Shown in pieces: positions 2,491-51,249 of a stretch of 56,072 nucleotides of DNA. The stretch is taken from assembly GCA_036496405.1 (NCBI GenBank), contig DASXLF010000564.1:1-56072 (forward strand). Reading direction: 5' to 3'. Source of the stretch: Steroidobacteraceae bacterium (GTDB taxonomy: Bacteria; Pseudomonadota; Gammaproteobacteria; Steroidobacterales; Steroidobacteraceae). The translations under genes and the position numbers were made by a program. The notes under the pieces were generated by a model. The model was not told where the DNA came from. It was given only the letters and a program-made list of their open reading frames with translations, and ran no database searches. Position 1 is the first letter of the stretch, and each line of letters opens with the position of its first letter.

Positions 2491-2500
2491 GCGTATGTCC

Positions 2501-14998: not shown

Positions 14999-15000
14999 CC

Positions 15001-15528: not shown

Positions 15529-15572
15529 AAGGTCTCCGTCGCGAGCGCACGCGCCTTTGCGGCGGCATGCGT

Positions 15573-19760: not shown

Positions 19761-19879
19761 TATCTCCAAGCTCCGTTACCGCTTGATTGAGAGTTCATTC
19801 TTTGGCGCTTCAATGCGATGTGATCCCGGTCTCAGTTTTTAACCCTGCATTCAACGATACGATAACGTTGATACGTAAT

Positions 19880-19945: not shown

Positions 19946-19964
19946 GTGCAAAGATATTTTGCAC
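19946..19964. promoter_or_regulatory. Perfect palindrome GTGCAAA-gatat-TTTGCAC, candidate operator just upstream of the SD of the plus-strand haem operon
   Basis: Read directly. It sits in the most AT-rich segment of the window (19770-19960) and ends 2 nt before the AGGGAG SD at 19966-19971. Confidence 0.35.
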
Positions 19965-19976
19965 CAGGGAGTGATG

Positions 19977-21158
19977 ATGAGCACAGCAGGGACACGCAGC
20001 AGCGCCGCGCGGCACGCGACGAGCTTGATGCTCGCTGCACTCCTAGGATTTCAGCCGCTGGCCCCGCTCATTGCCGGAGCTAACGAACAGGCCGCTCGCA
20101 TGCACAGCCGTCTGGCCGGCGTACCGCCCAGCAGCGCGGTGCTTGCGCAGATGGCGACGCTGATCAGCAACAACAATGCGCAGGCTGCGGCGCAGCTGGC
20201 GATGAACAACAGCGGCTTCTACAACGTGACGCTGCGCAATTTCATCGCGCCGGCGACCAATCGCGCGCAGTCGCCGTTCGTGCCGCTCAACGACTACACC
20301 GCCACCGTCATCGGCATGATCCGCGACAATGTGCCGTTCAACACGGTGCTGTCGGCGGATCTGCTCTACATAGGCAACGTCAGCGGCGCACCGCCGTATT
20401 CGCCGAGCAACAATAATCACTACCAGTATCTCGACGACCACGGCGTGGACCTGAAATCCGCGCTTGTTGCGACGACGCAGTCCTCGCTTACCGGCATACC
20501 GTCTTCGGCCACCGCCGGGGTGATCACCACCGAGGCGGCGGCGGCGGCGTTTTTCATTGCCGGCACTAATCGCGCGATGTTCCGCTTCACCATGATCAAC
20601 TACCTGTGCAATGACATGCCGCAGGTCATGGATATCTCGCGGCCGCCGGATCGCATCCGCCAGGACGTCAGCCGCTCACCCGGCGGAGACAGCCGCGTGT
20701 TCCTGAATAATTGCATCGGTTGCCACGCCGCCATGGATCCCATGGCGCAGGCATTCGCGTACTACAACTACGATCCGACGGCGCTGCAGCTGGTCTACAC
20801 GCCCGGGCAGACGCAGGCGAAGTATCACATCAACACTGGCAACTTCCCGTATGGCTTTGTCACGCCGGACGACTCATGGGACAACCGCTGGCGTACCGGA
20901 CCGAATGCATTACTGGGCTGGAGCCCGGGGCTGCCCGGCAGCGGCAATGGCGCCAAGTCGCTGGGGCAGGAATTGGCCAGCAGTCAGGCGTTCGCCGACT
21001 GTCAGGTGCAGAAGGTATTTCAGGCCATATGCCTGCGTCCGCCGAGTAATGCTGCCGATCGCACCGAGGCGGCGCAAATCGTCGCCGACTTCAAGTCCGG
21101 CGGATACAACATGAAGCAGGTCTTTGCCGAGACTGCCGCGTACTGCATGGGTAACTAG
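19977..21158 (+). CDS. Secreted monohaem protein, DUF1585/DUF1588-like (Planctomycete PSCyt/PSD-type)
   Basis: I chose the ATG at 19977, 5 nt after the AGGGAG SD; the track uses the TTG at 19959. It has a signal-like N-terminus. CIGCH at 20712-20726 sits in the context NNCIGCHAAMDPMAQAF, which resembles the C..CH...DP.G motif I recall for DUF1588. Confidence 0.75.
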   Translation: MSTAGTRSSAARHATSLMLAALLGFQPLAPLIAGANEQAARMHSRLAGVPPSSAVLAQMATLISNNNAQAAAQLAMNNSGFYNVTLRNFIAPATNRAQSPFVPLNDYTATVIGMIRDNVPFNTVLSADLLYIGNVSGAPPYSPSNNNHYQYLDDHGVDLKSALVATTQSSLTGIPSSATAGVITTEAAAAAFFIAGTNRAMFRFTMINYLCNDMPQVMDISRPPDRIRQDVSRSPGGDSRVFLNNCIGCHAAMDPMAQAFAYYNYDPTALQLVYTPGQTQAKYHINTGNFPYGFVTPDDSWDNRWRTGPNALLGWSPGLPGSGNGAKSLGQELASSQAFADCQVQKVFQAICLRPPSNAADRTEAAQIVADFKSGGYNMKQVFAETAAYCMGN

Positions 21159-21189
21159 GCGACGCCGCCGGCCTCTCTGGGAGACTACA

Positions 21190-23691
21190 GTGAATCGAAT
21201 CCGTCCCCGTCCGCCGACTCTGGTGCTCCAGCTGGCCCTGCTGGGGCTGGTCGCCTGTTCCGGCGGCGCACCCACGACGCAGAATCCGAACACTGCCGTC
21301 ACCACCGCATCCGTGTACGCCGGGCCGGCGCCGGCATCGGCGGACGTCGAGGCGTTCAAGGTCAATCTGTGGCAGAACATCAATATGGCGTCGCGCTGCG
21401 GTGGCTGCCACAAAGCCGGCGGACAGTCGCCGATGTTCGCGCGCAGCGACGATGTCAACCAGGCCTATAGCGCCGCGCTCACGGTGGTCAATCTCACGCA
21501 GGCCGATCAGTCCACCATGGTGGTCAAGGTCGCGGGCGGACACAATTGCTGGCTCTCGAGTCCGTCGGCGTGCGCGGACATTCTCACCACATGGATTCAG
21601 AACTGGGCCGGAGGCGGCTCGGGCGGCGCTGCCGGCTCGACACAGATCGTGCTCACCGCGCCGGTCGATCAGGCGGTGGGACCGACCAAGCAGTTCCCGG
21701 CCGACTCATCGCTGTTCTCCAGCACGGTGTATCCGTTGCTGACCATGTTCTGCTCGCGCTGCCATTCCCCGAATGCGACCGTGCCGCAGTCGCCGTATTT
21801 CGCCAGCAGCAACGTCGATCAGGCGTACGCCGCGGCGCAGGCCAAGATCGACCTGAATGATCCGACGCTCTCGCGCTTCTACGTGCGCCTGGCGACGGAA
21901 TCGCACAATTGCTGGCCGACCACGACCGGTGGCCCGGTGGACTGCCCCGGAAGCGCCGCCCGCATGCTGGCGGCGATCCAGGCCTATGCCAATGCCGTGC
22001 CGACCACGCCGGTGGATCCGACGCTGGTAGTGTCGCGCGCCCTCACGCTCTACGCCGGTACGGTCGCCTCCGGCAATAATCGCTATGACGCCGACATCAT
22101 TGCCCGCTGGCTGTTCAAAGAGGGCAGCGGCAGCACCGCCTTCGACACCAGCGGCGTCGATCCGGCGATCAACCTGACGATCTCGGGCAATACCAACTGG
22201 GACAGCGCCTGGGGCCTGATCTTCGGCACTGGCGGCGCCAAGGCCCAGGGCTCGACCGCCACCAGCAGCAAAATCTTCAGCGCCATCAACACCAGTGGCC
22301 AATATTCGCTCGAGCTGTGGGCCGCGCCGGCCAACGTCACCCAGACCATGGCCTTCATGGGGGGCTACTCCGGCGGCACCGCGGCGCGCAATTTCACGCT
22401 CGCCCAGGATGCCATGCAGTATCAGGCGTACGGGCGCAGCACCGTCACTGATGCCAATGGCGCGCCGCCATTGACTACTGCTGCCGCCAATATGAATGCG
22501 CAGGCGGCATTGCAGCACATCGTCCTCACCTACGATCCCACTCACGGACGTCAGCTGTTCGTCAACGGCAACTTCACCGGTGACTTAGACCCGCTGACCG
22601 GCGGCACGCTCGGCAACTGGGACAACACCTTTGCCTTCCTGCTCGGCAATGAAACGTCCAATGACCGGCCATGGCAGGGAGAAATCCGTTTTGCCGCGGT
22701 CCACAACCACGCCATGACGCTGGCGCAGATTCAGGAGAACTACGCCGCCGGCGTCGGCCAGCTCTACTATTTGTTGTTCGACGTCAGTGCGCTGACCGGT
22801 GTCTCGCAGAGCTACATCATGTTCACCGCCAGCCAGTACGACAATTACAGCTATCTGTTTGACAAGCCGACGTTCATCAGTCTCAACCCGAAGGCACAGC
22901 CCGGAAATATTCCGATCAAGGGCCTGTACATCGGCATCAACGGTCAGGAAGCGGCGGTCGGCCAGGCTTACAGCACGCTGAATACCACGGTGAGCAACGC
23001 CAATTATTCACCCACCGCCGGTCAGCTGCTGTCGAGCATGGGTACGGTGTTGCCCATGCAGCTCGGGCCGGCGACCGATCTGTTCTTTCTGAGCTTCGAT
23101 CAGATCGGCACCAACACCCACGTGCGCACCTCGCCCACTCCCACGGCGCCGACGCCCACGGATCTCGCGCCTTCGGCCGATATTGGGCTGCACGTGTACG
23201 ATGAACTCAACGCCTCGATGGCGGGCATCACCGGAGTATCTCCAGGCCTGAGCGCGGTCAACACCACCTATCAGACCGTGGAGCAGCAATTGCCAACGGT
23301 AGCGAATATCCAGGGCTTCCTGCCGTCGCAGGAAATCGGTATCTCGCAGCTGGCAATCCAGTACTGCAATGCGCTGGTCAACGACAGTACGCTCGAGCCG
23401 GCATTCTTCCCTGGCCTGAATCTGAACCAGACTCCGGCAGCGGCGTTCGGTACCACCGCCGGCATGGACCTGGTGATCACGCCGCTGATCAACAGTCCCG
23501 CCATCGGTGCCGGTCTGGCCAGCCAGCCCACGGCCGCGCAGGTGCGCACCGAGCTCTACAGCCTGATGACGAACCTCGTCAACTGCAGCGTCAGTGATCC
23601 GACCTGCGTGCAGACCCCGACGCGTACCCAGACCATCACCAAGGCCGTGTGCGCCACCGTGCTCGGCAGCGCGACGACTTTGATCAAGTAG
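21190..23691 (+). CDS. Lipoprotein with duplicated CxxCH haem-c module and central LamG/concanavalin-like domain
   Basis: I chose the GTG at 21190, which has a GGGAG SD; this gives VNRIRPRPPTLVLQLALLGLVAC/SG with a lipobox. CGGCH is at 21397-21411 and CSRCH at 21751-21765, each followed about 45-55 aa later by HNCW. LamG-like hallmarks are present (WLFKEGSGSTAFDTSG...LFVNGNF...WQGEIRFAAVHNHAMTLAQIQENY). Confidence 0.75.
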   Translation: MNRIRPRPPTLVLQLALLGLVACSGGAPTTQNPNTAVTTASVYAGPAPASADVEAFKVNLWQNINMASRCGGCHKAGGQSPMFARSDDVNQAYSAALTVVNLTQADQSTMVVKVAGGHNCWLSSPSACADILTTWIQNWAGGGSGGAAGSTQIVLTAPVDQAVGPTKQFPADSSLFSSTVYPLLTMFCSRCHSPNATVPQSPYFASSNVDQAYAAAQAKIDLNDPTLSRFYVRLATESHNCWPTTTGGPVDCPGSAARMLAAIQAYANAVPTTPVDPTLVVSRALTLYAGTVASGNNRYDADIIARWLFKEGSGSTAFDTSGVDPAINLTISGNTNWDSAWGLIFGTGGAKAQGSTATSSKIFSAINTSGQYSLELWAAPANVTQTMAFMGGYSGGTAARNFTLAQDAMQYQAYGRSTVTDANGAPPLTTAAANMNAQAALQHIVLTYDPTHGRQLFVNGNFTGDLDPLTGGTLGNWDNTFAFLLGNETSNDRPWQGEIRFAAVHNHAMTLAQIQENYAAGVGQLYYLLFDVSALTGVSQSYIMFTASQYDNYSYLFDKPTFISLNPKAQPGNIPIKGLYIGINGQEAAVGQAYSTLNTTVSNANYSPTAGQLLSSMGTVLPMQLGPATDLFFLSFDQIGTNTHVRTSPTPTAPTPTDLAPSADIGLHVYDELNASMAGITGVSPGLSAVNTTYQTVEQQLPTVANIQGFLPSQEIGISQLAIQYCNALVNDSTLEPAFFPGLNLNQTPAAAFGTTAGMDLVITPLINSPAIGAGLASQPTAAQVRTELYSLMTNLVNCSVSDPTCVQTPTRTQTITKAVCATVLGSATTLIK

Positions 23692-23714
23692 AGATTTCAT
23701 ACGAGGCGCCAGTC

Positions 23715-25307
23715 ATGAAGATCAGACGCAAGCGGCCCCTGGGGCTGCACGACCCGCTCCGCCACCCGGATCATCCGCGGCCTTTCAGCCGCAGGGATTT
23801 CCTGGCGCAGGGCTTCATGCGTGGTGCCGCCACCGTTGCGGGCATGTCAGTCTTCAGTCTGTTTGCCGATCCGCGCAAGGCGTACGCCACGCTGGCGCCG
23901 GACATTGCCGCACTCAAGGCTTCGCCGTGCAACATCACCACCGGCTCGGGCATGATTCCTTTTATCTGCTTCGACCTTGCCGGCGGCGGCAACATTGCCG
24001 GCTCCAACGTGCTGGTCGGCGGCGGTGGCGGTCAGATGGATTTCCTGTCCACCGCTGGCTATAACCGCCTCGGACTGCCCGGCAACATGATCCCCAATGG
24101 CTCCGCCGGGATCGGCAACTTCATCGATCAAAGTCTGGGTCTCGCGTTTCACAGCGACAGCGCCTATCTGCGCGGCATTAAGCAGCGCATCGCCGTGGCG
24201 ACCGCGGCCAACGTCAATGGGGCGGTCATGCCGGCGATGAGCGAGAACGATACTGGCGACAACCCTCACAACCCCATGTACGGAATCTATAGTTCCGGCT
24301 ATGCGGTGTTGACCCCGCCGGCGGGGGATAAGGGCGACCTGCTGGCGCTGATCGGGACCGAGAGCTCAACCTCCGGCGGAAATTCCATGGCGCCGTCGTA
24401 CATGATCGACCCGACCGTGCCTCCGACCAAAGTCTCGCAGGCTTCGGATGTGACCGGGCTGGTGAGCACCGGCCAGCTGGTCGGACTGCTCAGCCAGAGC
24501 GATGCGACATTGGTGCTCGAATCGATCGAGCGCATCAGCAAGAACAAGCTCGATTCGGTCGACACCCTGCTCGGTACCCAGGACGCGGTGGTCAAGGACC
24601 TGGTGCAGTGCGGCTACGTGGGCGCGGCCGATCAGGTGGATCGCTACGGCAATGCCAGCGCGACTTTGAATCCCGACATGGACACCGCGATCGTCGGCCC
24701 GGGCGGTATATTCACCACCGCCGAGTACCAGGGTGACGCGAATTTCCGCGCCACCGCCGCGGTCATGAAAATGGTGGTGAACGGTTATGCGGCCGCCGGC
24801 ACCGTCGAACTCGGCGGCTACGACTACCACACGGGTGATCGTGCCACCGGCGAGATGCGCGATGTCGAAGCCGGTCAGTGCATCGGCGCCTGCCTGGAGT
24901 ACGCGGCGCGCATGGGACAGCCGCTGATGATCTATGTATTCACCGATGGCTCCGTGGTGTCGAGCGGCATGATCGACAATTCGGCGGGCGGTCGCGGCAA
25001 GGGTGTATGGACATCCGATAACCAGACCACCGCGGCAACGTTCTTCCTGGTCTACAACCCCAACGGCCGGGCGACCACGATCTCCAACCAGATCGGCAGC
25101 TACACCAGCGACGGTAACGTCAACACGACCTCCAGCCCCGGCGCCAACGCCGTCAACCTGCTGGCTGAGACCGTGGTATTGAACTACCTGGCGCTGCATA
25201 ACAAGGCCGGTGCGTTCCAGACGTTGCAGTGGGCCAGCGGTCTTGGCACCGGCTTGGGTAGTGCCAGCGCCTACGATGCGTTGATCGCTCTGGCGCCTAT
25301 TCGTTAG
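23715..25307 (+). CDS. Tat-exported protein, DUF1501/DUF1552-like (sulfatase-fold-like) partner
   Basis: ATG at 23715 with a GAGG SD 8 nt upstream. The twin-arginine motif FSRRDFLAQG is at 23787-23804. GGYDYHTGD is reminiscent of the GGWDTH motif of DUF1501. The family call is tentative. Confidence 0.7.
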   Translation: MKIRRKRPLGLHDPLRHPDHPRPFSRRDFLAQGFMRGAATVAGMSVFSLFADPRKAYATLAPDIAALKASPCNITTGSGMIPFICFDLAGGGNIAGSNVLVGGGGGQMDFLSTAGYNRLGLPGNMIPNGSAGIGNFIDQSLGLAFHSDSAYLRGIKQRIAVATAANVNGAVMPAMSENDTGDNPHNPMYGIYSSGYAVLTPPAGDKGDLLALIGTESSTSGGNSMAPSYMIDPTVPPTKVSQASDVTGLVSTGQLVGLLSQSDATLVLESIERISKNKLDSVDTLLGTQDAVVKDLVQCGYVGAADQVDRYGNASATLNPDMDTAIVGPGGIFTTAEYQGDANFRATAAVMKMVVNGYAAAGTVELGGYDYHTGDRATGEMRDVEAGQCIGACLEYAARMGQPLMIYVFTDGSVVSSGMIDNSAGGRGKGVWTSDNQTTAATFFLVYNPNGRATTISNQIGSYTSDGNVNTTSSPGANAVNLLAETVVLNYLALHNKAGAFQTLQWASGLGTGLGSASAYDALIALAPIR

Positions 25308-25477: not shown

Positions 25478-26017
25478 GTGCGAGTGCGGCTGAAGCATCG
25501 AGCGAACCGAACTGCCGGGCTCTGCCTGTGGTTGTATTGCGGCCTGCACTGGGGCGCCGCAACCGCGGCCAGTCCCGGCATCGTGGCACAGCGCGCGCCG
25601 GATTTTGCGCTGCCGGCAGCCGTTGGCGACAACGTGCGGCTGTCCGAATTCCGCGGCCAACCCGTGGTGCTCACATTCTGGAGCAGCCGCTGCAGTACCT
25701 GCGCGGCACAACTTGCGGCACTCGATCGTTACTACGCAACCTACCGCTCATCAGGTCTGGTGGTGCTGGGCGTCAGTGTCGAGGATGATCCGCAGCGCGC
25801 CTTACAATATGCGCGCGCACACTCGACTGCGTATCCGTTGCTGCTCGATCAGGCCAAGGCAGTTGCCCGCGCCTATGAGATCGAGCGCCTGCCGACTACG
25901 GTACTGATCGATCGCTCCGGCGTCGTGCGCTACCTGCACAGCGATGATCATCCCGCTGATACGTCCTACGTGACACAGATCCGCGCCTTGCTGGACGACA
26001 AAGTGGGCGCCCCATGA
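25478..26017 (+). CDS. TlpA/ResA-like periplasmic redoxin with CSTC active site
   Basis: Thioredoxin-fold pattern APDFALP...GQPVVLTFWSSRCSTCAAQL...YPLLLD...LPTTVLIDRSG, with a signal-like N-terminus. The GTG start is uncertain by a few codons. Confidence 0.8.
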   Translation: MRVRLKHRANRTAGLCLWLYCGLHWGAATAASPGIVAQRAPDFALPAAVGDNVRLSEFRGQPVVLTFWSSRCSTCAAQLAALDRYYATYRSSGLVVLGVSVEDDPQRALQYARAHSTAYPLLLDQAKAVARAYEIERLPTTVLIDRSGVVRYLHSDDHPADTSYVTQIRALLDDKVGAP

Positions 26018-26667
26018 ACTCTCTCACATCAATGCAGTCTCCCATGAACACAATGATTCGCCGTCTATCGTCGAGCTTCTGGCCGTTGCTGCTGCTGCCG
26101 CTCACCACTCCTGCATGGTGCGCCCAGCCGGCCGCGCCCGCCGCCGCCAGTGCTCCCGCGGCCCAGGCCGAGTCCGCTGCGTCCAAGAGCGATGCCGCTG
26201 CCGCCGATGCCGGCGGCGGCACGCGTGGGCTGGACGAGCAGATCCAGGACCTCAAGAAGGATGTCGTGGATCTCAACAAGGATCTGTTCGTGCTCGAAGA
26301 GGAACTGCTGTTTCCGGCCAACACGCAAGTGGCGGTGTTCGTGTCGATGGACGTCGGCGATTTCTTCGCCCTGGATTCGATCTCGCTGAAGATCGACAAT
26401 AAAGATGTCAGCGACTACCTGTATACCCCGCGAGAAGTGGCGGCATTGCTCAAGGGCGGGGTGCAGCGCCTGTACGTCGGCAATCTCAAGTCCGGCGAAC
26501 ACGAACTGGTGGCGCTGTTCAATGGCAAGGGACCGCACGAGCGCGACTACCGGCGCGCCGCCAACCTGCGCTTCGAAAAGGGCGTTGGTGCGAAGTACCT
26601 GGAACTGAAGATCACGGATCACCAGCGTGCGCAGCAACCCGAGTTCGAAATCAAGGATTGGGAATAG
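26014..26667 (+). CDS. Secreted protein, unknown function (coiled-coil plus beta-rich domain)
   Basis: The start overlaps the redoxin stop in ATGA. It has a signal peptide (FWPLLLLPLTTPAWC/AQP), an Ala-rich linker, a coiled-coil LDEQIQDLKKDVVDLNKDLFVLEEELL and then a beta-rich domain. I recognise no family. Confidence 0.65.
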   Translation: MNSLTSMQSPMNTMIRRLSSSFWPLLLLPLTTPAWCAQPAAPAAASAPAAQAESAASKSDAAAADAGGGTRGLDEQIQDLKKDVVDLNKDLFVLEEELLFPANTQVAVFVSMDVGDFFALDSISLKIDNKDVSDYLYTPREVAALLKGGVQRLYVGNLKSGEHELVALFNGKGPHERDYRRAANLRFEKGVGAKYLELKITDHQRAQQPEFEIKDWE

Positions 26668-26674
26668 CGGGCGT

Positions 26675-28621
26675 ATGAGCGGCTGGCGTTTCGGACTGGG
26701 ATTGTGCGCGCTGCTGGCGGGTGTCGGCCTGACGCCTGCGCAAGCCGCGCATAAGAGCGATCCGAACAAGCTGCCGAGCATTCGCGTGCAGGACCTGCAC
26801 TACGGCGAGGTGCTGTTCCAGTTCTACTCCGGCCAGGAATTCCAGGCGCTCACCGAACTCGAGGCCTTCAGCCAGTGGCATCGCATGCCGCATCACGCCG
26901 CTGATGCGGACCTGCTGGCCGGTGGCCTGTATCTCGAACTCGGCATGCACAACGAGGCGGGACGGCGCTTCGAGCGCCTGCTCACCGACAACATTCCCGT
27001 CGGTGTGCGCAATCGCGCCTGGTTCTATCTGGCGAAGATCTGGTACGAACGCGGCTACTACGAGCGTAGCGAACAGGCGATCGGTCGCATACAAGGCACC
27101 CTGGACACGCAACTCGAGGCTGAGCGGGTGCATCTGCTGGTCAACGCACTCATGCGCCAGCAACGCTACGACGACGCCATCGCATTGCTCCGGGGCTGGC
27201 ACGGCCCCGCGGATTGGATGGCCTATGCAGGCTTCAACCTGGGGGTGGCACTGGTGCGCGCCGGACGCCTGCCGGAAGCCGATCCGATCCTGACATCGGT
27301 TGGCACGCTCAACACCAGCAGCGATGAATTGCTGAATCTGCGGGACAAGGCCAATCTGGCGTTGGGATTCGCCTACCTGCAGGCCGATCAGAGCGCCAAG
27401 GCGCGTGCGCCGCTGGAACGCGTGCGGTTGAACGGGCCGTACTCGAGCCGCGCCTTGCTCGGTGACGGTTGGGCACATGCTGCACAAGGCGAGTATCGCG
27501 CTGCGCTCACACCCTGGCTCGAACTTCGTCAGCGCAATCTGCTGGACGCGGCGGTGCAGGAATCGTTCCTCGCCGTTCCCTATGCCTTCAGTAAACTCAA
27601 TGCCAATGGCCAGGCGGCCGACTACTACGAGTCGGCGCTGAGCTCATTCGCCAGCGAGTCGGACAATCTCGACTCGGCGATCGCGAATATTCAGCAAGGC
27701 CACATGCTCGATGACCTGCTGGGCGACGACAAGGACGCGCGCTACGGCTGGTTCTGGCAGCTCAAGGCCTTGCCCGACTCGGCGCAGTCGCGCTATCTCT
27801 ACTCAATACTGGCGGACAACGATTTTCAGGAAGGGCTCAAAAACTATCGCGATCTGGCGTTCCTGCAGGGCACCTTGCGGCACTGGGATGACAGCATGGA
27901 GGCGTTCGCGGCGATGATCGAGACCCGTCAGCGCGCATACGCCGAGCGACTGCCGCGCGCCGACGCGCTGCTCAACAGCGACACTCAGACGCGACTGCGC
28001 GACGCGCGTGTCGCTGTCGGATCGCAGCTCGATGCGGCCGAGACCGGTAACGACGTGGCCGCGCTCGGCACGCCGACCGAGCGCGAACAATGGGCGCACC
28101 TGGCCCGGCTTGCCGATGTGTTGGCCAGCATGCCGCCCGGTTCCGAGCGTGATGCGGCCCGCGACAAGCTGCGACTGATCAAGGGTGTGCTGTATTGGCG
28201 GTTGGACGCCAGCTTCAAGGAACGCGCCTACGAACAACGGCACTCGTTGCGCGAACTGGACGCGGCGCTCGATGAGTTGCAGAACCGCTGGGTACGCGTG
28301 CAGCAGGCGCGCGCCACGGTGCCGAACGATACCGGTGAATACGCGGTTCGTATCGCCGCGCTGGCAGTTCGCGTCCAGGCCATGCATAAGCGCCTGGAGC
28401 AATCGTCGCAACAGCAGAGCAAATACCTGGATGAGCTGGCTGAATCGGAATTGCGCGCACAGAAGCAGCGTCTCGATGCTTATGCCCTGCAGGCGCGCTA
28501 CGCGCTGGCGGACATTTACGATCGCGCCGACGATCAGCAGGGGGCGGCCAAGAAGCCGGACGCACCTGGCGCCGGAGATGCGGCGCCGCCGGTCCCGGTT
28601 CCGGTCCCGGAGTCGCAATGA
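26675..28621 (+). CDS. Secreted TPR-repeat protein (about 648 aa)
   Basis: I chose the ATG at 26675 (MSGWRFGLGLCALLAGVGLTPAQA, a signal peptide). The N-terminal half has TPR-like repeats and the C-terminal half has long coiled-coil segments. Confidence 0.75.
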   Translation: MSGWRFGLGLCALLAGVGLTPAQAAHKSDPNKLPSIRVQDLHYGEVLFQFYSGQEFQALTELEAFSQWHRMPHHAADADLLAGGLYLELGMHNEAGRRFERLLTDNIPVGVRNRAWFYLAKIWYERGYYERSEQAIGRIQGTLDTQLEAERVHLLVNALMRQQRYDDAIALLRGWHGPADWMAYAGFNLGVALVRAGRLPEADPILTSVGTLNTSSDELLNLRDKANLALGFAYLQADQSAKARAPLERVRLNGPYSSRALLGDGWAHAAQGEYRAALTPWLELRQRNLLDAAVQESFLAVPYAFSKLNANGQAADYYESALSSFASESDNLDSAIANIQQGHMLDDLLGDDKDARYGWFWQLKALPDSAQSRYLYSILADNDFQEGLKNYRDLAFLQGTLRHWDDSMEAFAAMIETRQRAYAERLPRADALLNSDTQTRLRDARVAVGSQLDAAETGNDVAALGTPTEREQWAHLARLADVLASMPPGSERDAARDKLRLIKGVLYWRLDASFKERAYEQRHSLRELDAALDELQNRWVRVQQARATVPNDTGEYAVRIAALAVRVQAMHKRLEQSSQQQSKYLDELAESELRAQKQRLDAYALQARYALADIYDRADDQQGAAKKPDAPGAGDAAPPVPVPVPESQ

Positions 28622-31600
28622 AGCGCCGGCGCCTGCAGGTGCTGGTCGTGCGCTGTGCCATATTGCTGGCCGCGGCGTCGCCCGCCATGGCGGCCAAGAA
28701 CACCAAGCCCGCAGCCCCGACCATTGGCGATCTGAGTGCCAAGACGGTCGACGTGAATCCGGCACCGGCCAAGGGCGGCGGTGCCGCCAAGGCGATGGAG
28801 AACTATCGCCAGTTCCTCAATCTGCAGAATGCCGATCCGCGCTTGCGCGCCGAAGCGATGCGGCGCCTGGGTGATTTGAACCTGGAGTCCGGCGAACTCG
28901 AACGCATGTCCAATGAGGTGACGCAGCTCGACATGCAGGGAGCCGAAGCCATCCGCCTGTATTCGACGCTGCTCAAAGCCTATCCCGACTATCAGCGCAA
29001 CGACCAGGTGCTCTATCAGCTGGCGCGCGCCTATGAGACCACCGGCCAGACGCCGTTGGCGCTCGCGACCCTCGATACCATCGTCGCCCGCTACCCGAGG
29101 GGACGCGACATTGCCGAGGTGCAGTTCCGGCGCGGCGAGATTCTGTTCTCGAACCGGCGCTATCCGGAGGCGCAGCTGGCCTACGAGGCGGTGCTGGCGC
29201 GCGGCCGCGACGGCTCGACCTTTTACGCGCAGAGCCTGTACAAGCACGGCTGGTCGCAATTCAAGCAGGGCATGAACGAGGTCAGCTTGAAGTCGTTTGC
29301 CGATCTGCTCGATCTGACTTTGACCGACCCGAAGAGCCCGGGGCGCATGCGTCCGTGGGAAACCCTGTCGCGTCCCGATCGGGAATTGGCGGAAGATACG
29401 TTGCGGGTCATGAGTATTACGTTCTCGTACCTCGATGGTGCGAAGACGCTGGATGATTTTGCCGCTCGCCGCGGCCATATGGTTTATGCGTGGCTGCTGT
29501 ATTCGCGCCTGGGCGACCTGTACGTGGAGAAGCAGCGTTTTCAGGACGCAGCCGCGACCTATCGCGCCTTCGTCAGCCGTGATCCGATCGATGAGCACGC
29601 GCCGACGCTCGAGATGGCGGCCATCGAGGCCTACCGCAAGGGTGGCTTCGCCGACCTGATGCTCGACGGCAAGCTCGAGTATGCGCAGCGCTACGGCTTC
29701 GGCGCCCCGTTCTGGCAGGGCCGCGAGCACAGCGCCTATCCGCAATTGGTCGAGGAACTCAAAACCAACTTGAAGGACGTGGCTCAGTACTATCACGCCA
29801 GCGCGCAGAAAACCAAAAAGCCCGACGACTACGCGGCCGCGGCGCATTGGTATCGCACCTACCTGAGCTCGTTCCCGGATGATCCGGATTCCGCCGCCAC
29901 CAACTATCTGCTGGCCGATGCACTGTTCGAAAGCCGGCAGTACCAGGACGCCGCGGGCGAATATGAACACACCGCCTACGGCTATCCGCGCAACGCGCGC
30001 TCGGCCGAGGCGGGTTACGCGGCACTGGTGGCGTACCAGAAGTACGAGGACACGCTGAGCCCGGACGCGCGCGCCAGCGCGCATCAGCGGACCACCGAAG
30101 CCGGGCTCAAGTTTGCGCAGGCATTCCCGGAACATGCGGAAAGCTCCGTGGTGCTGACGCATGCGGCCCAGGATTTGTATGCCGCCGGCGATCAGGCGCG
30201 CGCCGCGCAGGCGGCGCAGACGCTGCTGGCGCGCAATCCGCCAGTGGATGCTGCCAAGCAGCGCATTGCCTGGACGATCGTTGGCCAGGTGAGCTTCAAT
30301 CAGGGCGACTTCGCCCAAGCCGAAAGTGGCTATACCCACGCGCTGGCCGCGGCGGCGGCCAACGATCCCGAACGCGCCGATATCACGGAACGACTGGCGG
30401 ATGCGGTGTACAAGCAGGCGGCCGCCAAGCGCACCGCCGGTGACCAAGCCGGTGCGGCCCAGGATTTCCTGCGCGTCGCGCGCATTGCGCCCGGATCCAA
30501 GGTTATCGCGACGTCGCAATACGATGCCGCCGCTTCGCTGATCAGCGCCCAGCAATGGGACCAGGCGATTGCCGTGCTCGAGGCCTACCGCCGCGACTAT
30601 CCCAAGAGCGAATACAACGCCGATATCGATCGCAAGCTTGCGGTTGCCTATGAACAGGGCGGCCACTCGGCCCAGGCCGCGGCGCAATACGAACACATCG
30701 CCGACAACGCTCACGAAGATCGCGCGGTGGTGCACGAGGCGATCGTGAAGGCCAGCGATCTATATGCAAAGTCAGGCGATGCCGCACGCAGTACCGCGAT
30801 GCTGGAGCGGCTGGTACGTGACTATCCGACGCCAGTTGCCGATGCGATCGAAGTGCGTCAGCGGTTGCTGGATGCGACCACCAAGTCGGGCAACCTCGAG
30901 CGCCAGCGCTATTGGCAGCGCGAGATCGTCAAGGCCGATGCGAGCGCCGGCAGCGGGCGCACGGATCGCACCAAGTACCTGGCGGCGCGCGCGCAGCTGG
31001 CATTGTCCGAGCCCGTGCGTGATCAATTCCAGGCCATCAAACTCGTGGTGCCACTCAAGCAGAGCCTGATCGCGAAGAAGAAGGCCATGGAGGCGGCGGT
31101 GCAGGCCTACAAGGAGGTCGCCGAGTACCAGGTGGCCGAAACCACGACCGCGGCCACCTACGAGACCGCGGAGCTCTACCGCGTACTGGGCCACGATCTG
31201 ATGACCTCGGAGCGGCCCAAGAAGCTGTCGGCCGACGAGCGCGAGCAATACGACACGCTGCTCGAGGAGCAGGCCTATCCATTCGAAGAGCAGGCGATTG
31301 CGATTCACGAGATCAACGCCAAGCGGGCCGCGGATGGGGTGTACGACGACTCGGTGCGTAAAAGCTTCGATGCCCTGGCGCAACTGCTGCCAGCGCGCTA
31401 CGGCAAGGTCGAGCTCAGCCAGACCTGGGTCGCATCGCTGGCCGCGCCCGGCGCGACTGCCCCGAGCAGCGCAGCCCAGGCCGACTATGACCGCGCCGCG
31501 CAACTCGCGGCCGCAAACAAGGCCACCGAGGCCGAGCTGTCATTGCAGCAGTTCGAGCTGCAGTTTCCGGGTTTCGCGGCCCCGGCGGTCGATCTGGGCT

Positions 31601-32079
31601 TGCTGGAGCGGCGTGAAGGCAAGCTCAGCGATTCCGAGGCGGCACTGCGCCGTGCGACCGTCCTGGCGCCAGCCGATGCCCTGGCCTGGAGCGAACTGGG
31701 TGTGACACTGCGCCAGGAAGGCAAATTCAGCGATGCGCGCGCCGCCTACGGGCAGGCTCTCAGCGCCGATGATTCCTATGCGCCGGCGCACCGTAACCTC
31801 GGTGTGCTGCTCGATCTTTATCTGGGCGACCCGGCCGCCGCGCTGCCGGAATTCGAGCGCTACAAGACTCTGTCGGGTGAGGACAAACCTGTGAGCGGCT
31901 GGATTGCCGAGCTGCGCGCCCGCACCGGGGTGAAGGCGGCGCCTGCCCCGGATACCCCGGGCCCGAACACACCCGCCGCGGCCACGCCGTCCTCAGATAC
32001 GTCCGCTCAAGGTTCGCCGGCGCCGGAAGTGCCGGCCGGTGCACCGGTAGCGGCGGGCAATAATGGAGGTACGACGTGA
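28618..32079 (+). CDS. Giant secreted TPR-repeat protein (1153 aa)
   Basis: The start overlaps the upstream stop in ATGA. It has a signal peptide (AILLAAASPAMA) and many TPR units (for example YQLARAYETTGQTPLALATLDTIVARYP, YAQSLYKHGWSQFKQG, AWSELGVTLRQEGKFSDARAAYGQALSADDSYAPAHRNLG). The tail is Pro/Ala-rich. Confidence 0.8.
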   Translation: MKRRRLQVLVVRCAILLAAASPAMAAKNTKPAAPTIGDLSAKTVDVNPAPAKGGGAAKAMENYRQFLNLQNADPRLRAEAMRRLGDLNLESGELERMSNEVTQLDMQGAEAIRLYSTLLKAYPDYQRNDQVLYQLARAYETTGQTPLALATLDTIVARYPRGRDIAEVQFRRGEILFSNRRYPEAQLAYEAVLARGRDGSTFYAQSLYKHGWSQFKQGMNEVSLKSFADLLDLTLTDPKSPGRMRPWETLSRPDRELAEDTLRVMSITFSYLDGAKTLDDFAARRGHMVYAWLLYSRLGDLYVEKQRFQDAAATYRAFVSRDPIDEHAPTLEMAAIEAYRKGGFADLMLDGKLEYAQRYGFGAPFWQGREHSAYPQLVEELKTNLKDVAQYYHASAQKTKKPDDYAAAAHWYRTYLSSFPDDPDSAATNYLLADALFESRQYQDAAGEYEHTAYGYPRNARSAEAGYAALVAYQKYEDTLSPDARASAHQRTTEAGLKFAQAFPEHAESSVVLTHAAQDLYAAGDQARAAQAAQTLLARNPPVDAAKQRIAWTIVGQVSFNQGDFAQAESGYTHALAAAAANDPERADITERLADAVYKQAAAKRTAGDQAGAAQDFLRVARIAPGSKVIATSQYDAAASLISAQQWDQAIAVLEAYRRDYPKSEYNADIDRKLAVAYEQGGHSAQAAAQYEHIADNAHEDRAVVHEAIVKASDLYAKSGDAARSTAMLERLVRDYPTPVADAIEVRQRLLDATTKSGNLERQRYWQREIVKADASAGSGRTDRTKYLAARAQLALSEPVRDQFQAIKLVVPLKQSLIAKKKAMEAAVQAYKEVAEYQVAETTTAATYETAELYRVLGHDLMTSERPKKLSADEREQYDTLLEEQAYPFEEQAIAIHEINAKRAADGVYDDSVRKSFDALAQLLPARYGKVELSQTWVASLAAPGATAPSSAAQADYDRAAQLAAANKATEAELSLQQFELQFPGFAAPAVDLGLLERREGKLSDSEAALRRATVLAPADALAWSELGVTLRQEGKFSDARAAYGQALSADDSYAPAHRNLGVLLDLYLGDPAAALPEFERYKTLSGEDKPVSGWIAELRARTGVKAAPAPDTPGPNTPAAATPSSDTSAQGSPAPEVPAGAPVAAGNNGGTT

Positions 32080-32585
32080 AAACATCGGTCGTGACGCGAT
32101 GGTGGCTGGTGCTCGCATGCGTCGCGGCCGGCGTGGCCATGGCACAAACGCCGGATTTGGAACCGGGGGTGCAGACCTCGGCGCCAGTCCCCGAGCCCTC
32201 ATCGGTGCCGCCAGCCACGCCGCCAGCCACATCACCGGCCGGCGCTACGCACACCGCGCCTCCGGCGCCGGCAAGCGCCACCCCGGCTCGCGCCGGCAGC
32301 AAGACTGAGGATCGCATTCAACTCGACACCACCCAGATCAGCGGCAATCGTGAATTGCCCAAGGTCATGTACGTGGTGCCCTGGCGCAAGGCGGATCTGG
32401 GCGAATTTGCCGGCCGGCCGCCGAACAGCCTGCTCGACGAGGCACTCACGCCGGTGGACCGCGACGTATTCCGGCGGCAGAACCACTATTACGCGGCGCT
32501 GCAGGCGGGGGCCGCGACCTCCAAGTCTCAACCTGAGGTACCCGCGGCCAAAGCCGCGGGACCAGAGACCAAGGATGAGAAGTAG
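32076..32585 (+). CDS. Secreted Pro-rich protein, unknown function
   Basis: GTG start with a strong GGAGG SD 6 nt upstream, overlapping the upstream stop in GTGA. It has a signal peptide, a Pro/Ala/Thr linker and a conserved-looking core ISGNRELPKVMYVVPWRKADLG. Confidence 0.6.
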   Translation: MKTSVVTRWWLVLACVAAGVAMAQTPDLEPGVQTSAPVPEPSSVPPATPPATSPAGATHTAPPAPASATPARAGSKTEDRIQLDTTQISGNRELPKVMYVVPWRKADLGEFAGRPPNSLLDEALTPVDRDVFRRQNHYYAALQAGAATSKSQPEVPAAKAAGPETKDEK

Positions 32586-32664
32586 ATCGCGGTATTGCGC
32601 GTTTGCGTCACTTTAGTTTGACCATATCGGTGGATCATAGCGTTCAGGCATGGGAGTCAGCACG

Positions 32665-33321
32665 ATGAGCTTGTTCAGTCATATTGTGGTTTTTTTCCAG
32701 GGCGGCGGCGACATGATGTATCCGATCGCCGTAGTGTTCGTCGCCGGTCTGGCGATCGCGCTCGAGCGATTCATTTATCTCACCACCGTGCAGTTGCGTA
32801 ATCGCGGGCTGTGGAATCAGCTGGTGCCGCTGCTGCAGCGGGGCGATTTTCGCCAGGCGGTCCAATTGACCTCCAAATCCCCGTCGGCGGTGGGACAGAT
32901 CCTGAGCTACGGGTTGGCCCGCATCTCCACGGCGCGTCACCGCGACGATATCGAGAAGGCCATGGAAGAGAGCCTCATGGATGTGGTGCCGCGACTGGAG
33001 AAGCGCACGCACTACATCGCCACGTTCGCCAACTTGTCGACCCTGCTGGGCCTGCTGGGCACGGTCATCGGCCTGATCAACGCGTTCGCGGCGGTGGCCA
33101 CGGTCAACCCGGCGGAGAAGGCCAACCTGCTGTCGGCCAGCATCTCGGTGGCCATGAACTGCACCGCCTTCGGACTCATGAGCGCGGTGCCGTTGCTGCT
33201 TATTCACGCATGGCTGCAGACCAAGACCACGGACACCATCGACAGCCTGGAGATGGCGTCGGTCAAGTTCCTCAATGCCGTGACCGAACGCCAGGCGCAG
33301 CCGGCGCCGGCCGCAGCCTGA
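32665..33321 (+). CDS. MotA/TolQ/ExbB-family proton channel
   Basis: Three transmembrane helices and the signature FANLSTLLGLLGTVIGLINAF. I chose the ATG at 32665, which has a GGGAG SD 8 nt upstream; the track start is 32650. Confidence 0.9.
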   Translation: MSLFSHIVVFFQGGGDMMYPIAVVFVAGLAIALERFIYLTTVQLRNRGLWNQLVPLLQRGDFRQAVQLTSKSPSAVGQILSYGLARISTARHRDDIEKAMEESLMDVVPRLEKRTHYIATFANLSTLLGLLGTVIGLINAFAAVATVNPAEKANLLSASISVAMNCTAFGLMSAVPLLLIHAWLQTKTTDTIDSLEMASVKFLNAVTERQAQPAPAAA

Positions 33322-33347
33322 CACGGCTTTAGGCCCAGGTAGCGCGC

Positions 33348-33863
33348 ATGCGCCGTTCGTACCAGGTTCGCAAGCTCCTGCGCCACCAGCGCAAGCCCGT
33401 GGAGCTGATGCTCGTGCCGATGATCGACATCTTCACCGTGCTGGTGACCTTTCTGCTCATGACGGCGGTGTTCTCCCGCACCGTCATCCTCGAGCTCAAA
33501 CTGCCGCCGGCGAATGCCGAGTTCACGCCACCACCACCCGGGCTGCAGCTCGAGGTCATGGTGCGCAAGGACTCGCTCATGGTCGATGACCGCAATTCCG
33601 GTCCGCTGGCGACCTTTCCCAACCAGAACGGCGCCTACGATTACGAGGCGCTGTCCAAATATCTGCAGCAGGTGAAGAGCCGCTTCCCGGACAAGACCGA
33701 TGCCACGGTACTGCTCGAACCGGACACGCCTTACGACGTGGTGGTGCAGGTCATGGATCGCGTACGTGTGCTGGAGGTCAATGCCGGGCTGAATGTCGTG
33801 CAATACGAACTGTTCCCGGACGTTTCCCTGGGCGATGCGCCCGCGGTCGGAGCACAACCATGA
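33348..33863 (+). CDS. ExbD/TolR-family protein, paralog 1
   Basis: A single N-terminal transmembrane helix carries the conserved Asp (LVPMIDIFTVLVTFLL). A periplasmic ExbD-type domain follows (ATVLLEPDTPYDVVVQVMD). Confidence 0.9.
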   Translation: MRRSYQVRKLLRHQRKPVELMLVPMIDIFTVLVTFLLMTAVFSRTVILELKLPPANAEFTPPPPGLQLEVMVRKDSLMVDDRNSGPLATFPNQNGAYDYEALSKYLQQVKSRFPDKTDATVLLEPDTPYDVVVQVMDRVRVLEVNAGLNVVQYELFPDVSLGDAPAVGAQP

Positions 33864-34384
33864 GCATGTCACGACGCGCCCGCTTCATGCTGCAGCATCA
33901 GCTGCGCCATCGCGCCGATGGGCAGCTGAACCTGATTCCGTTCATCGATATCCTGACTGTGATGGTGTCGTTCCTGCTGGTGTACTCGACCAACGTCGAG
34001 GTGGTTCAGAACAGCAAGGGCATCGAGATACCGCAGTCGATTTCCGAGCGTCAGCCGCGCACCACCGTGGTGGTGATGCTGACCAAGGAGGACCTGTTCG
34101 TGCAGGGCGAGCGCATCGCCTCGGTGGCCGATGTCAAGGCCACTGACGGCGACATCATCGGCCCGCTGCGCGATGCGCTCAAGCGTCCGACGCTGGTGGG
34201 TCAGCAGACCAGTGAAGAGGATCTGGCGCAGCGCGAGATCACGGTAATGGGCGACAAGTCGCTGCCCTACGAGGTGTTGAAGAAGGTGATGCGCACCTGT
34301 ACCGATGCGGACTACGGCCGCATTTCGCTGGCTTTATTGCAGAAAGACAAGCCAGTACCTGCCGGCGCAGTCGGGCGGACATAA
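33860..34384 (+). CDS. ExbD/TolR-family protein, paralog 2
   Basis: The start overlaps paralog 1 in ATGA. The transmembrane helix carries the conserved Asp (LIPFIDILTVMVSFLL). An ExbD-type periplasmic domain follows (ITVMGDKSLPYEVLKKVMRTC). Confidence 0.9.
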   Translation: MSMSRRARFMLQHQLRHRADGQLNLIPFIDILTVMVSFLLVYSTNVEVVQNSKGIEIPQSISERQPRTTVVVMLTKEDLFVQGERIASVADVKATDGDIIGPLRDALKRPTLVGQQTSEEDLAQREITVMGDKSLPYEVLKKVMRTCTDADYGRISLALLQKDKPVPAGAVGRT

Positions 34385-34400
34385 GGCGGAGATCAAGAGG

Positions 34401-35312
34401 ATGCAGCTGTCCCAGTACTACCGCGAATACACGCTGGCGTGGGAGGTCGATCCGGAGGAACAGCGCCGGTTCCGCCGCTTCATGGGCGGCGGCATGGCGT
34501 TGGTGCTGTTGCTCGGCGTGGTCTTTCCGCTCATTCACCTGCCGCCGCAGACCCAGACGGCAGCGGAAGCCGTTCCCGATCGGCTGGCGCGACTTATGGT
34601 CCAGGAGAAACCCAAGCCGCCACCGCCGCCAGTCGAGCAGCCCAAGCCCAAGCCCGAGGTGAAGCCGGTCGAGGTCCCCAAGCCGGTCGATCGCGCCGCC
34701 GATGCCCGCAAGAAGGCGCAGCAATCGGGACTGCTGAAATTGAAGGACGAACTGGCCGACCTGCGCCAGAACGTCGATCTGACCCCGCTCGGGCAGACCA
34801 AGAATCTGCAGGGCGCCGTGGGACAGGACAGCCACGCTGAGCGCTCGCTGATTGCATCGAAGGTCGGGGCTGGATCGGCCGGCATCACCACCGCCAACTC
34901 CAGCCGCGGCTTTGGTACCGGCGCCGGGTCGCTCACGGGACACGACACGATGGCGGTCAGCTCGCGCATCGCGGCCGCTTCCGGCGTCAGTAACGTCGCC
35001 AAGGGCGGCAGCGGCAAGCCCTCGCGCAGCGAGGAGGAAATTGCGCTGGTGTTTGACAGCAACAAGGGCGCCATCTATGCGCTCTATGGTCGCGCGTTGC
35101 GTGATCAGCCCGACCTTCAGGGTAAGCTGGTACTGGAATTCACCATTTCCCCGGCCGGTGAGGTGACCGAGTGCCACGTGGTGTCCAGCGAGCTGAAGAA
35201 TCCAGAATTGGAGCGTAAGATCGTGGCGAGAGTGAAGTTGTTCCGCTTTGCGGCCAAGGATGTCGCGACCATCACGACCACCAAGCCAATCGAGTTTGTA
35301 CCGACGGCATGA
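34401..35312 (+). CDS. TonB-like energy transducer with PglI/AgmX-type C-terminal domain
   Basis: ATG at 34401 with a GGAG about 9 nt upstream. It has one transmembrane helix and a Pro/Lys/Glu-rich spacer KPKPPPPPVEQPKPKPEVKPVEVPKP. A Gly/Ser-rich linker leads to the C-terminal AIYALYGRALRDQPDLQGKLVLEFTISPAGEVTEC...VKLFRF. Confidence 0.8.
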   Translation: MQLSQYYREYTLAWEVDPEEQRRFRRFMGGGMALVLLLGVVFPLIHLPPQTQTAAEAVPDRLARLMVQEKPKPPPPPVEQPKPKPEVKPVEVPKPVDRAADARKKAQQSGLLKLKDELADLRQNVDLTPLGQTKNLQGAVGQDSHAERSLIASKVGAGSAGITTANSSRGFGTGAGSLTGHDTMAVSSRIAAASGVSNVAKGGSGKPSRSEEEIALVFDSNKGAIYALYGRALRDQPDLQGKLVLEFTISPAGEVTECHVVSSELKNPELERKIVARVKLFRFAAKDVATITTTKPIEFVPTA

Positions 35313-35327
35313 GCCAGCCAGCCAGCT

Positions 35328-35687
35328 TTGAACCTGCAGTCAGAAATCGATTACTTCAGTGAGCTGCAACCCGTGGATCAGGCCCGGTTGCTGGCGGTAT
35401 TTCTGCATGAGTTGACGATCGAGGCGCGCAGCACCTACGGGGCCAGTGCCGAACAAGTGCATGACGGCGCGCGGCTGCGCTTCGTCAATGAGATCGTCTG
35501 CCGTCTGGCGCGCTTCATCGAGCAACTGCTGGCCGACGACCAGACGCGTCCCGGCGACGATGTGGTGCTGCGCATGCTGCTGTCGCCACGCGCCGATTCG
35601 GCCGCCGAACGCCTGGTCAACAATGCCTATCGGCGCGCCATGCATGGCTTCGATCGCTACGATGCCACGGTGACCATGGACAAGTGA
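35328..35687 (+). CDS. Hypothetical cytoplasmic protein (119 aa)
   Basis: ORF with a TTG start 15 nt after the TonB-like gene. Codon bias is consistent with coding. I recognise no motif. Confidence 0.45.
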   Translation: MNLQSEIDYFSELQPVDQARLLAVFLHELTIEARSTYGASAEQVHDGARLRFVNEIVCRLARFIEQLLADDQTRPGDDVVLRMLLSPRADSAAERLVNNAYRRAMHGFDRYDATVTMDK

Positions 35688-45658: not shown

Positions 45659-45673
45659 GCCAGACGCCGCACC

Positions 45674-51234: not shown

Positions 51235-51249
51235 CGGCTGCCAGGTCTG

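Follow-up and report, generated by a model that had tools for sequence, protein, structure and literature searches.

The ten-gene operon and its gene calls

The window analysed here is a stretch of 56,072 nucleotides (nt) from a Steroidobacteraceae bacterium (assembly GCA_036496405.1, contig DASXLF010000564.1), and the system in question is an operon of ten tightly packed open reading frames (ORFs) at positions 25478-35687, all on the + strand. In order, they encode a redoxin, a secreted protein of 217 amino acids (aa; p217), a 648-aa protein, a 1153-aa protein with tetratricopeptide repeats (TPRs), a small secreted protein of 169 aa (p169), an ExbB-family channel subunit, two ExbD-family proteins, a TonB-like protein and a 119-aa ORF (p119). 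The operon is a new example, from soil Steroidobacteraceae and thus a new host order, of the already described non-gliding core of the Agl-Glt machinery of Myxococcus xanthus, out of which the gliding motor of that bacterium evolved.

The initial annotation had listed these ten ORFs as one closely linked set, and all of them were found in place and in the same orientation. Four junctions are 4-nt ATGA or GTGA overlaps (redoxin/p217, 648-aa/1153-aa protein, 1153-aa protein/p169 and the two ExbD genes), and the remaining gaps measure 7-64 nt. These gaps assume the better-supported starts for two genes: 26675 for the 648-aa protein, whose ORF is open from 26627, and 34401 for the TonB-like protein. 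The latter is the most likely start, with GGAG upstream, and the resulting length of 303 aa is the one found in gene calls on three metagenome contigs. The same operon was found on three JGI metagenome contigs. A promoter and terminator scan of the operon gave no signal above shuffled expectation, and tRNA and Rfam scans of the whole window returned zero matches.

Agreement with a core complex from non-gliding bacteria

Luciano et al. (2011; PMC3169522) divided 14 gliding genes into Group A, which occurs in Myxococcales and Bdellovibrio only and includes gltF, and Group B, which consists of gltC, gltD, gltE, gltG, aglR, aglQ and aglS. Group B was found as a single-locus 'core complex' in one betaproteobacterium, several gammaproteobacteria, Geobacter and Fibrobacter, its function being unknown at that time, and such loci were listed for Methylibium, Cellvibrio, Marinobacter, Hahella, Shewanella, Thioalkalivibrio and others. 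The core carries one extra gene that has no myxobacterial homologue. Its published sizes, in the order GltC/GltD/GltE/extra/AglR/AglQ/AglS/GltG, are about 630/940/160-260/-/220/170/165/320-370 aa, with homologues of MXAN_2541 (gltC) at 624-660 aa and of MXAN_4870 (gltD) at 933-964 aa; the Methylibium series (Table S3) reads 634/941/243/[Mpe_A1227]/217/170/163/371 (PMC3169522).

The series in the window, 648/1153 (940 plus about 190 fused)/169/223/171/174/303, has the order and the sizes of this core. The proposal of the initial annotation that an Agl-Glt-like core, of a kind put forward in earlier phylogenomic work, is present outside the Myxobacteria is upheld by its agreement with the 2011 core complex (PMC3169522). 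The one mismatch with the published sizes, the 1153-aa protein, can be explained by a syntenic relative (our locus L084) which has the same flanking genes and carries the GltD-like and GltE-like genes separately, as part of a series of 710/939/183 (TPR)/205/216/200/174/308 aa.

Conservation was counted over 93 related loci from species-level genomes, in which absences fall where contigs end. Nine of the ten window genes are colinear in about 70-86 of these loci, which argues that the operon genes are real. The colinear set comprises the redoxin, p217, GltC, GltD, GltE, the small ORF, AglR, AglQ, AglS and GltG, each in 77-93 of the loci. The named close homologues of the 1153-aa protein are from Steroidobacteraceae. 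At least 593 species-representative genomes match the scan pattern, with a patchy distribution; the best 80 of them belong to Steroidobacterales, Woeseiaceae and unclassified Gammaproteobacteria, and include the cultured Peristeroidobacter agariperforans KA5-B as well as a Povalibacter and a Woeseia metagenome-assembled genome (MAG). No copies of the core were found on plasmids by tblastn.

The large periplasmic proteins and their natural fusions

The initial annotation had described two giant TPR proteins, the larger of GltD type and the smaller a counterpart of GltE. The first description holds for the 1153-aa protein, which matches many TPR families, including the CpoB/YbgF-type TPR model TIGR02795 at 100-106 bits (cutoff 90.1); it fails for the 648-aa protein, in which TPR Pfam matches are sub-threshold (17 bits or less). 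Nor does the 648-aa protein correspond to GltE: it occupies the position of the GltC homologues and falls in their published size range. This GltC-like gene was present in 87-90 loci.

The GltD assignment of the 1153-aa protein stands for residues 1-940 and has to be replaced for the C-terminal part of about 190 aa, which is GltE-like. In an exhaustive search of 50%-identity representatives, the protein retrieved 1390 clusters at E<1e-30, and the top 150 representatives are mostly 920-950 aa long, aligning with query residues from about 15 to 940 only. Residues 966-1143 matched the free-standing 183-aa TPR gene of L084 with 50% identity (BLASTP, E 2e-47), and the same module is 58% identical to a 318-aa protein of another locus, L085 (BLASTP). 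By sequence, therefore, the protein is best read as a GltD-like scaffold followed in frame by a short GltE-like module. The two are fused in 30 of the 87 informative loci and separate in 57. A sequencing artefact was considered as the source of the fusion and rejected, as 30 loci carry it.

Further fusions were found among the relatives. GltC and GltD modules are joined in proteins of about 1400-1550 aa (P0299, P0288, P0344, P0336, P0340 and P0338), GltD and GltE in a protein of 1235 aa among the distant representatives, and p217-like, GltC, GltD and GltE modules, with the p217-like one N-terminal, in P0298 (1819 aa); with P0273, these identifiers make up the full set of fusion proteins. By the Rosetta-stone argument, such fusions suggest that the GltC-, GltD- and GltE-like proteins, together with p217, form a single periplasmic assembly.

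The motor and its TonB-like transducer

The channel subunit and the two ExbD-family proteins matched their Pfam families clearly (MotA_ExbB, 97.4 bits; ExbD, 59 bits for paralog 1 and 54 bits for paralog 2). Their scores against the NCBIfam equivalog models were much lower than the cutoffs: for the channel 59.7 bits with TolQ (cutoff 221) and 39.5 bits with ExbB (cutoff 206.2), for the plug proteins 30-33 bits with TolR (cutoff 127.3) and 29.1 and 21.2 bits with the ExbD models (cutoffs 152.95 and 123.45). Among PDB sequences, the channel scored about equally with TolQ (35.9 bits) and with ExbB (32.7 bits), and ExbD1 had no significant match. The channel is 54-59% identical to its cluster orthologues in beta- and gammaproteobacterial loci. 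Judged by these scores, neither canonical ExbBD nor canonical TolQR describes the motor, and the classical ExbBD system that the initial annotation had named as the outcome that would overturn its proposal is disfavoured.

By gene content, the 1:2 ratio of channel to plug genes that had been claimed is correct, with one MotA_ExbB protein and two distinct ExbD paralogs, and so is the claim that both paralogs retain the transmembrane (TM) aspartate, which can be read in the motifs PMIDIF (Asp27) and PFIDIL (Asp30). The paralogs are about 25-28% identical to one another. By BLASTP, paralog 1 is 46.5% identical to its orthologue in Rhodoferax and 25% to the other paralog there, and the corresponding values for paralog 2 are 37.7% and 23.5%. 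As orthologues are far closer than paralogs across Beta- and Gammaproteobacteria, the two can be considered ancient and distinct. Two unlike plug proteins would fit, by analogy, the AglQ/AglS heterodimer that has been modelled for M. xanthus (PMC11761067).

The TonB-like protein consists of a cytoplasmic N-terminus of about 30 aa, one TM helix, a Lys/Pro-rich linker and a C-terminal TonB domain of AgmX/PglI type. It passed the cutoff of 40 of the AgmX/PglI-tail model NF033768 with 66.7-66.9 bits, and matched the gliding_GltG model NF033760 with 47 bits (E 1.4e-12; cutoff 650) over model positions 507-629. These positions take in the TonB-like C-terminal domain and the last part of the stretch that has been modelled wrapped around GltD. 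The fit to TonB_C was far weaker (27-32 bits), the TonB equivalog scored 26.6 bits against a cutoff of 315, and the GltJ model gave a weak match to the tail and no more. Pfam and NCBIfam scans found no FHA or other cytoplasmic domain on this GltG-like protein, and a comparison with PDB sequences gave no significant match.

The redoxin and the small proteins p217, p169 and p119

The redoxin matched Pfam AhpC-TSA with 102.6 bits and Redoxin with 87 bits, along with NCBIfam models of ResA/DsbE/TlpA type, and is found upstream of p217 in 78-81 loci. The best-conserved component of the cluster is p217 itself, with a median identity of 70% (67% in the Rhodoferax MAG). It was found in 83-86 loci, each time directly 5' of the GltC-like gene. 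It has no match in Pfam or NCBIfam, and its single-sequence AlphaFold2 (AF2) model is poor, with a predicted local distance difference test score (pLDDT) of 40.5.

For p169, the initial annotation had proposed GltF. This was not sustained, since its position is that of the published 'additional gene', and GltF is a Group A protein of Myxococcales and Bdellovibrio (PMC3169522). The protein combines a signal peptide with a Pro/Ala-rich linker, which is lineage-specific, and with a conserved core of about 70 aa (GN-ELPK-LY-VPW ... SLLDE ... P-DR-VF-R ... YY). This core was found again, equally placed, in each of the distant lineages sampled. It has more than 4000 relatives and no Pfam family. In distant loci, it is homologous to ORFs of 73-119 aa between GltE and AglR (46-54% identity), and it matched the 205-aa protein at the same position in L084 (BLASTP). 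In the AF2 model (pLDDT 56.7), most of p169 is disordered; the protein carries an invariant strand-like motif. By analogy and not by homology, p169 may form a bridge with the TonB-like domain, a role that GltF has in the model for M. xanthus.

The last ORF, p119, is conserved in 46-48 loci, all of Steroidobacteraceae type, and is absent from Woeseiaceae and from distant lineages; its membership in the system is doubtful.

Table 1. Coordinates of the operon genes and of neighbouring genes in the window
Feature	Position	Strand	Basis
TlpA/ResA-like thiol:disulfide oxidoreductase, predicted periplasmic	25478..26017	+	AhpC-TSA, Redoxin, CSTC motif, N-terminal signal or anchor
p217 secreted protein	26014..26667	+	Signal peptide, coiled-coil helix, beta-rich domain
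GltC-like periplasmic helical-repeat adaptor, 648 aa	26675..28621	+	Position, size
GltD-like TPR scaffold module, residues 1-940 of the 1153-aa ORF	28618..31437	+	Size, position, TIGR02795
Short GltE-like TPR module, residues 966-1153 of the 1153-aa ORF	31513..32079	+	BLASTP to the L084 gene
p169 small secreted protein	32076..32585	+	Position, conserved core of ~70 aa
AglR-like MotA/TolQ/ExbB-family proton-channel subunit, 223 aa	32650..33321	+	Pfam MotA_ExbB
AglQ-like ExbD/TolR paralog 1, 171 aa, TM Asp27	33348..33863	+	Pfam ExbD
AglS-like ExbD/TolR paralog 2, 174 aa, TM Asp30	33860..34384	+	Pfam ExbD
GltG-like TonB-type transducer, 303 aa	34401..35312	+	NF033768, NF033760, TonB_C
p119 small cytoplasmic ORF, doubtful member	35328..35687	+	TTG start, no signal peptide, no family
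p399, 855-aa LamG protein and p552	19959..25307	+	Co-directional ORFs upstream of the operon
DUF3570 outer-membrane barrel	13589-14758	-	Pfam, 155 bits
DUF4266 CXC lipoprotein	~14762-14980	-	Lipobox, C-terminal CGC
Second TlpA-like redoxin	~15001-15528	-	Pfam/NCBIfam, tblastn
OMP_myx_plus barrel	15573-16271	-	TIGR04565, 150.9 bits
SH3 + outer-membrane barrel	16241-17026	-	Pfam/NCBIfam, tblastn
Dihaem HZS-alpha-like propeller protein, 930 aa	16977-19769	-	Two conserved CxxCH motifs

A redox and outer-membrane module near the core

A second group of genes in the window, on the - strand at 13589-19769, encodes redox and outer-membrane (OM) proteins (Table 1), which were matched by tblastn to the module genes of two related loci, L089 and L092. 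In five divergent lineages (L086, which is Rhodoferax, L089, L091, L092 and L093), this module is co-directional and contiguous with the core from p217 to GltG, with short gaps, in the order (ApbE)/dihaem HZS-alpha-like protein/~160-aa protein/SH3 and OM barrel/OM barrel/redoxin/DUF4266/DUF3570, followed by p217 onwards. The window holds every family of that array save ApbE, inverted relative to the core. Homologues of the HZS-alpha-like protein lie at the edge and on the minus strand in 43-44 loci (43 with the window protein as query, 44 with that of L092), which suggests that an inverted module is the usual state in this family. A recent duplication as the origin of the two small OM barrels was rejected, as a BLASTP comparison between them gave no significant match.

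A TlpA-like redoxin, ApbE or both are located 5' of p217 in nearly all relatives with a long enough contig. ApbE was found in 17 of the 93 related loci. It heads the operon in the Woeseiaceae-type loci L063-L082 and in L087 and L090, as ApbE-redoxin-p217-core or ApbE-p217-core, and no DUF3570 gene was found within 10 kilobases (kb) of the core in these loci. The strict [S/T]GA[S/T] flavinylation motif is present in two of the six aligned DUF3570 copies (L089 and L092), even though the loci of the others include ApbE-encoding ones. Neighbourhoods of DUF4266, DUF3570 and TlpA have also been reported from a few species beside homologous proteins with the JDVT-CTERM sorting signal (Haft, bioRxiv 10.1101/2023.06.07.544157).

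Between this module and the operon lie three genes for conserved secreted proteins, namely p399, a LamG protein and p552. These genes overlap one another, end 170 nt before the redoxin and are kept upstream of the operon in 52-57 loci; they are possibly part of the same transcription unit. One CxxCH motif and a weak PSD2/DUF1585 match were found in p399, two CxxCH motifs in the LamG protein, and a twin-arginine-like SRRDFL signal, with no family, in p552.

On the 3' side, the operon is followed by genes for a Kef-type exchanger, phosphoenolpyruvate carboxylase, sulfite reductase and the GlgE pathway. These downstream + strand genes were considered as operon members and rejected, as their functions are unrelated and their synteny is variable. 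They include a complete GlgE-type alpha-glucan cluster at 43574-53427 (+), with GlgE, a 1117-aa TreS-maltokinase fusion, GlgB and a GlgX-like debranching enzyme. Near the other end of the window (1043-4132, -), a DUF4331 protein (476 bits) is encoded beside a 396-aa TPR protein; both are secreted and uncharacterised.

As had been noted initially, there is no gene for a TonB-dependent receptor inside the operon. The nearest (Plug and beta-barrel) is at 7497-10052 on the - strand, 15 kb upstream, and in related loci it has no link with the operon.

A putative envelope force transducer and its alternatives

We consider it likely that the operon is a beta/gammaproteobacterial Agl-Glt core, that is, a Tol/Ton-like envelope force transducer and not a gliding machine, with OM and redox proteins as its most likely partners. 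This reading builds on the gene content, gene order, conservation, fusions and domains observed here. In the mechanism that could be envisaged, an AglR-like pentameric channel would surround a heterodimer of the two ExbD/TolR paralogs with their proton-carrying Asp and would be driven by the proton gradient. The stator would work on the TM helix of the GltG-like protein, whose linker and AgmX/PglI-type domain would in turn grip the GltD-like scaffold with its fused GltE-like module; stoichiometry and contacts are taken from the work on M. xanthus (PMC3169522, PMC11761067). The GltC-like adaptor, p217 and p169 would tie the scaffold to OM partners. In this lineage, the likeliest candidates are products of neighbouring genes, namely the small OM barrels, the barrel of DUF3570 type and the redox proteins of thiol and haem type. 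The motor would in that case energise or gate a process at the OM and would not move the cell, which we infer from conserved gene order alone.

An energised or gated OM barrel/redox complex is the most likely single client suggested by the gene neighbourhoods, and we put it forward tentatively. A broader proposal, about as tentative or slightly more so, is that the core could be one half of an envelope-spanning system of about 17 genes and not a stand-alone unit of eight. The other half would be the ApbE/DUF3570/DUF4266/TlpA module with the two small OM barrels and the dihaem beta-propeller protein, and the two halves would be bridged by p217 and the GltC-like protein. The motor from which the Myxococcus gliding engine later arose would then have had the ancestral job of energising or gating an OM redox complex. 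Gliding is unlikely to be the output.

Several observations weigh against the reading as a force transducer with OM/redox partners. Non-myxobacterial cores are known from their genes alone, and the link of the GltC-, GltD- and AglRQS-like proteins of the window to their M. xanthus counterparts is positional, made through the GltG models and through synteny with clusters of the 2011 clade. The gliding_GltE model NF033758 scored 23 bits (cutoff 225), about as much as TPR families that are unrelated to it. The redox/OM module of the window lies on the opposite strand, 6-12 kb from the core; its DUF3570 protein reads DMISSAS where that of L092 has the canonical SGAS flavinylation site, and neither ApbE nor DsbD was found in a search across the window. 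In Woeseiaceae loci, ApbE and the redoxin are the only module genes beside the core.

Two other readings would place the operon among the better known relatives of the motor. The four proteins from ExbB to TonB could be an alternative or housekeeping TonB-ExbB-ExbD1-ExbD2 system that powers TonB-dependent receptors, with the TPR proteins as accessories. Their Pfam families (MotA_ExbB, ExbD and TonB_C) would suit this, ExbB-ExbD-ExbD-TonB arrangements are common in TonB systems, a TonB-dependent receptor is encoded within the window, and a conserved strand motif in p169 can be taken as TonB-box-like. However, the scores with the equivalog models of ExbB, ExbD and TonB lie under the cutoffs by a factor of 5-10, with TolQ and TolR slightly higher than ExbB and ExbD, and the AgmX/PglI model fits the transducer far better (66.9 bits) than TonB_C does. 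In addition, GltC-, GltD- and GltE-like genes stay strictly syntenic with the four in 77-93 loci, none of the loci examined has a receptor in the cluster, and the taxonomic distribution is patchy. Such a TonB system is therefore improbable. A paralog of Tol-Pal, in which a TolQRA-type motor works with a giant CpoB-like TPR protein in OM constriction, lipid homeostasis or envelope integrity instead of serving a dedicated OM/redox module, appears marginally less improbable. TolQ and TolR are the best hidden Markov model matches of the motor, the GltD-like protein contains several CpoB/YbgF-type stretches with TIGR02795 above its cutoff, and relatives are annotated by JGI as 'TolA-binding protein'. 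Yet TolQ and TolR remain far under cutoff, none of the loci has a gene for a TolB or Pal homologue within the cluster, the C-terminal domain of the transducer is of TonB/AgmX type and not TolA domain III, and p217, p169, the GltC-like protein and the redoxin or ApbE are without a Tol-Pal counterpart.

It is very improbable that the operon encodes a surface-motility or transport machine like Agl-Glt or Agl-Nfs, which would move an adhesin or a polymer over the cell surface. The core parts are common to the gliding and spore-coat machines, and the nearby OMP_myx_plus barrel and the second small barrel recall GltA and GltB. Against this, gltF, gltH, gltI, gltJ, gltK and the CglB adhesin were not detected, and the GltG-like protein has none of the FHA domains by which, in the cytoplasm, coupling to the cytoskeletal platform takes place.

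Comparison with known systems

With the core of Luciano et al. (PMC3169522), the operon shares the single locus, the gene order and sizes, the ratio of one channel to two TolR/ExbD paralogs, the small gene between GltE and AglR, the short TonB-like protein without FHA and the non-gliding host. It differs in its host order (Steroidobacterales and relatives, outside the 2011 genome set), in the fusion of GltD with a short GltE in the sub-clade of the window, in the conserved upstream p217 and TlpA-like redoxin, which are unmentioned in the 2011 text, in the lineage-specific p119 at its end and in the link to the OM-barrel/redox module. The function of the Agl-Glt core in non-gliders has been an open question since 2011, and is key to how a Tol/Ton-like motor became a motility and spore-coat machine. 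The window sharpens this question and does not answer it, by adding a large family with cultured members (Peristeroidobacter agariperforans), p217-GltC-GltD-GltE fusions and a candidate client.

The likeness to the Agl-Glt and Agl-Nfs machines of M. xanthus, as modelled in PMC11761067, lies in the AglR5-AglQ-AglS-type stator logic, the AgmX/PglI-type tail, the GltD-like TPR pillar with a GltE-like partner, and the GltC-like adaptor to small OM barrels. In M. xanthus, GltC docks the paired small OM barrels GltA and GltB, which are co-transcribed with gltC. Unlike these machines, the window system is without GltF, GltH, GltI, GltJ, GltK, CglB and a cytoplasmic platform. Its GltG-like protein has 303 aa in place of 650 aa and its GltE-like module about 190 aa in place of about 455 aa, its genes are all at one locus, and its expected output is not motility. 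For the Group A components (GltA, GltB, GltF, GltH, GltI, GltJ and GltK), no Glt or Cgl model matched the neighbouring proteins above 14 bits; the nearby OMP_myx_plus barrel is a lead only.

Tol-Pal and TonB-ExbB-ExbD belong to the same superfamily of proton-driven 5:2 stators, and they likewise have a Pro/Lys-rich transducer that spans the periplasm and a CpoB-like TPR partner. The window system, in contrast, fails their equivalog thresholds, has a predicted heterodimeric plug where theirs is a homodimer, and has very large TPR partners, its CpoB-type TPR protein being four times the size of CpoB. No TolB or Pal was found at any of the 93 loci, and no TonB-dependent receptor in the cluster at any locus examined.

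The module of ApbE, DUF3570, a thioredoxin-like protein and DUF4266 was described by Meheust et al. (2021; PMC8238504) as a flavinylation-associated extracytosolic redox module, and is an orphan. The window has SSAS for SGAS at the flavinylation site and lacks ApbE and DsbD; it and its relatives carry DUF3570, DUF4266 with CXC, a TlpA-like redoxin and, in the relatives, ApbE, in the same order. What differs most is that the module is here joined to a Tol/Ton-like motor and a TPR scaffold, a Ton/Exb/TPR link that is not discussed in PMC8238504. The candidate client of the core, the DUF3570/DUF4266/TlpA/ApbE redox module with small OM barrels, is thus itself an orphan system. The linkage of the core to p217 and to this redox/OM-barrel module is new here and provides a first testable clue to function. 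Should the link prove functional, two systems without an assigned role would merge into one testable system, and Tol/Ton-type motors would gain an OM redox complex as a client of a new kind.

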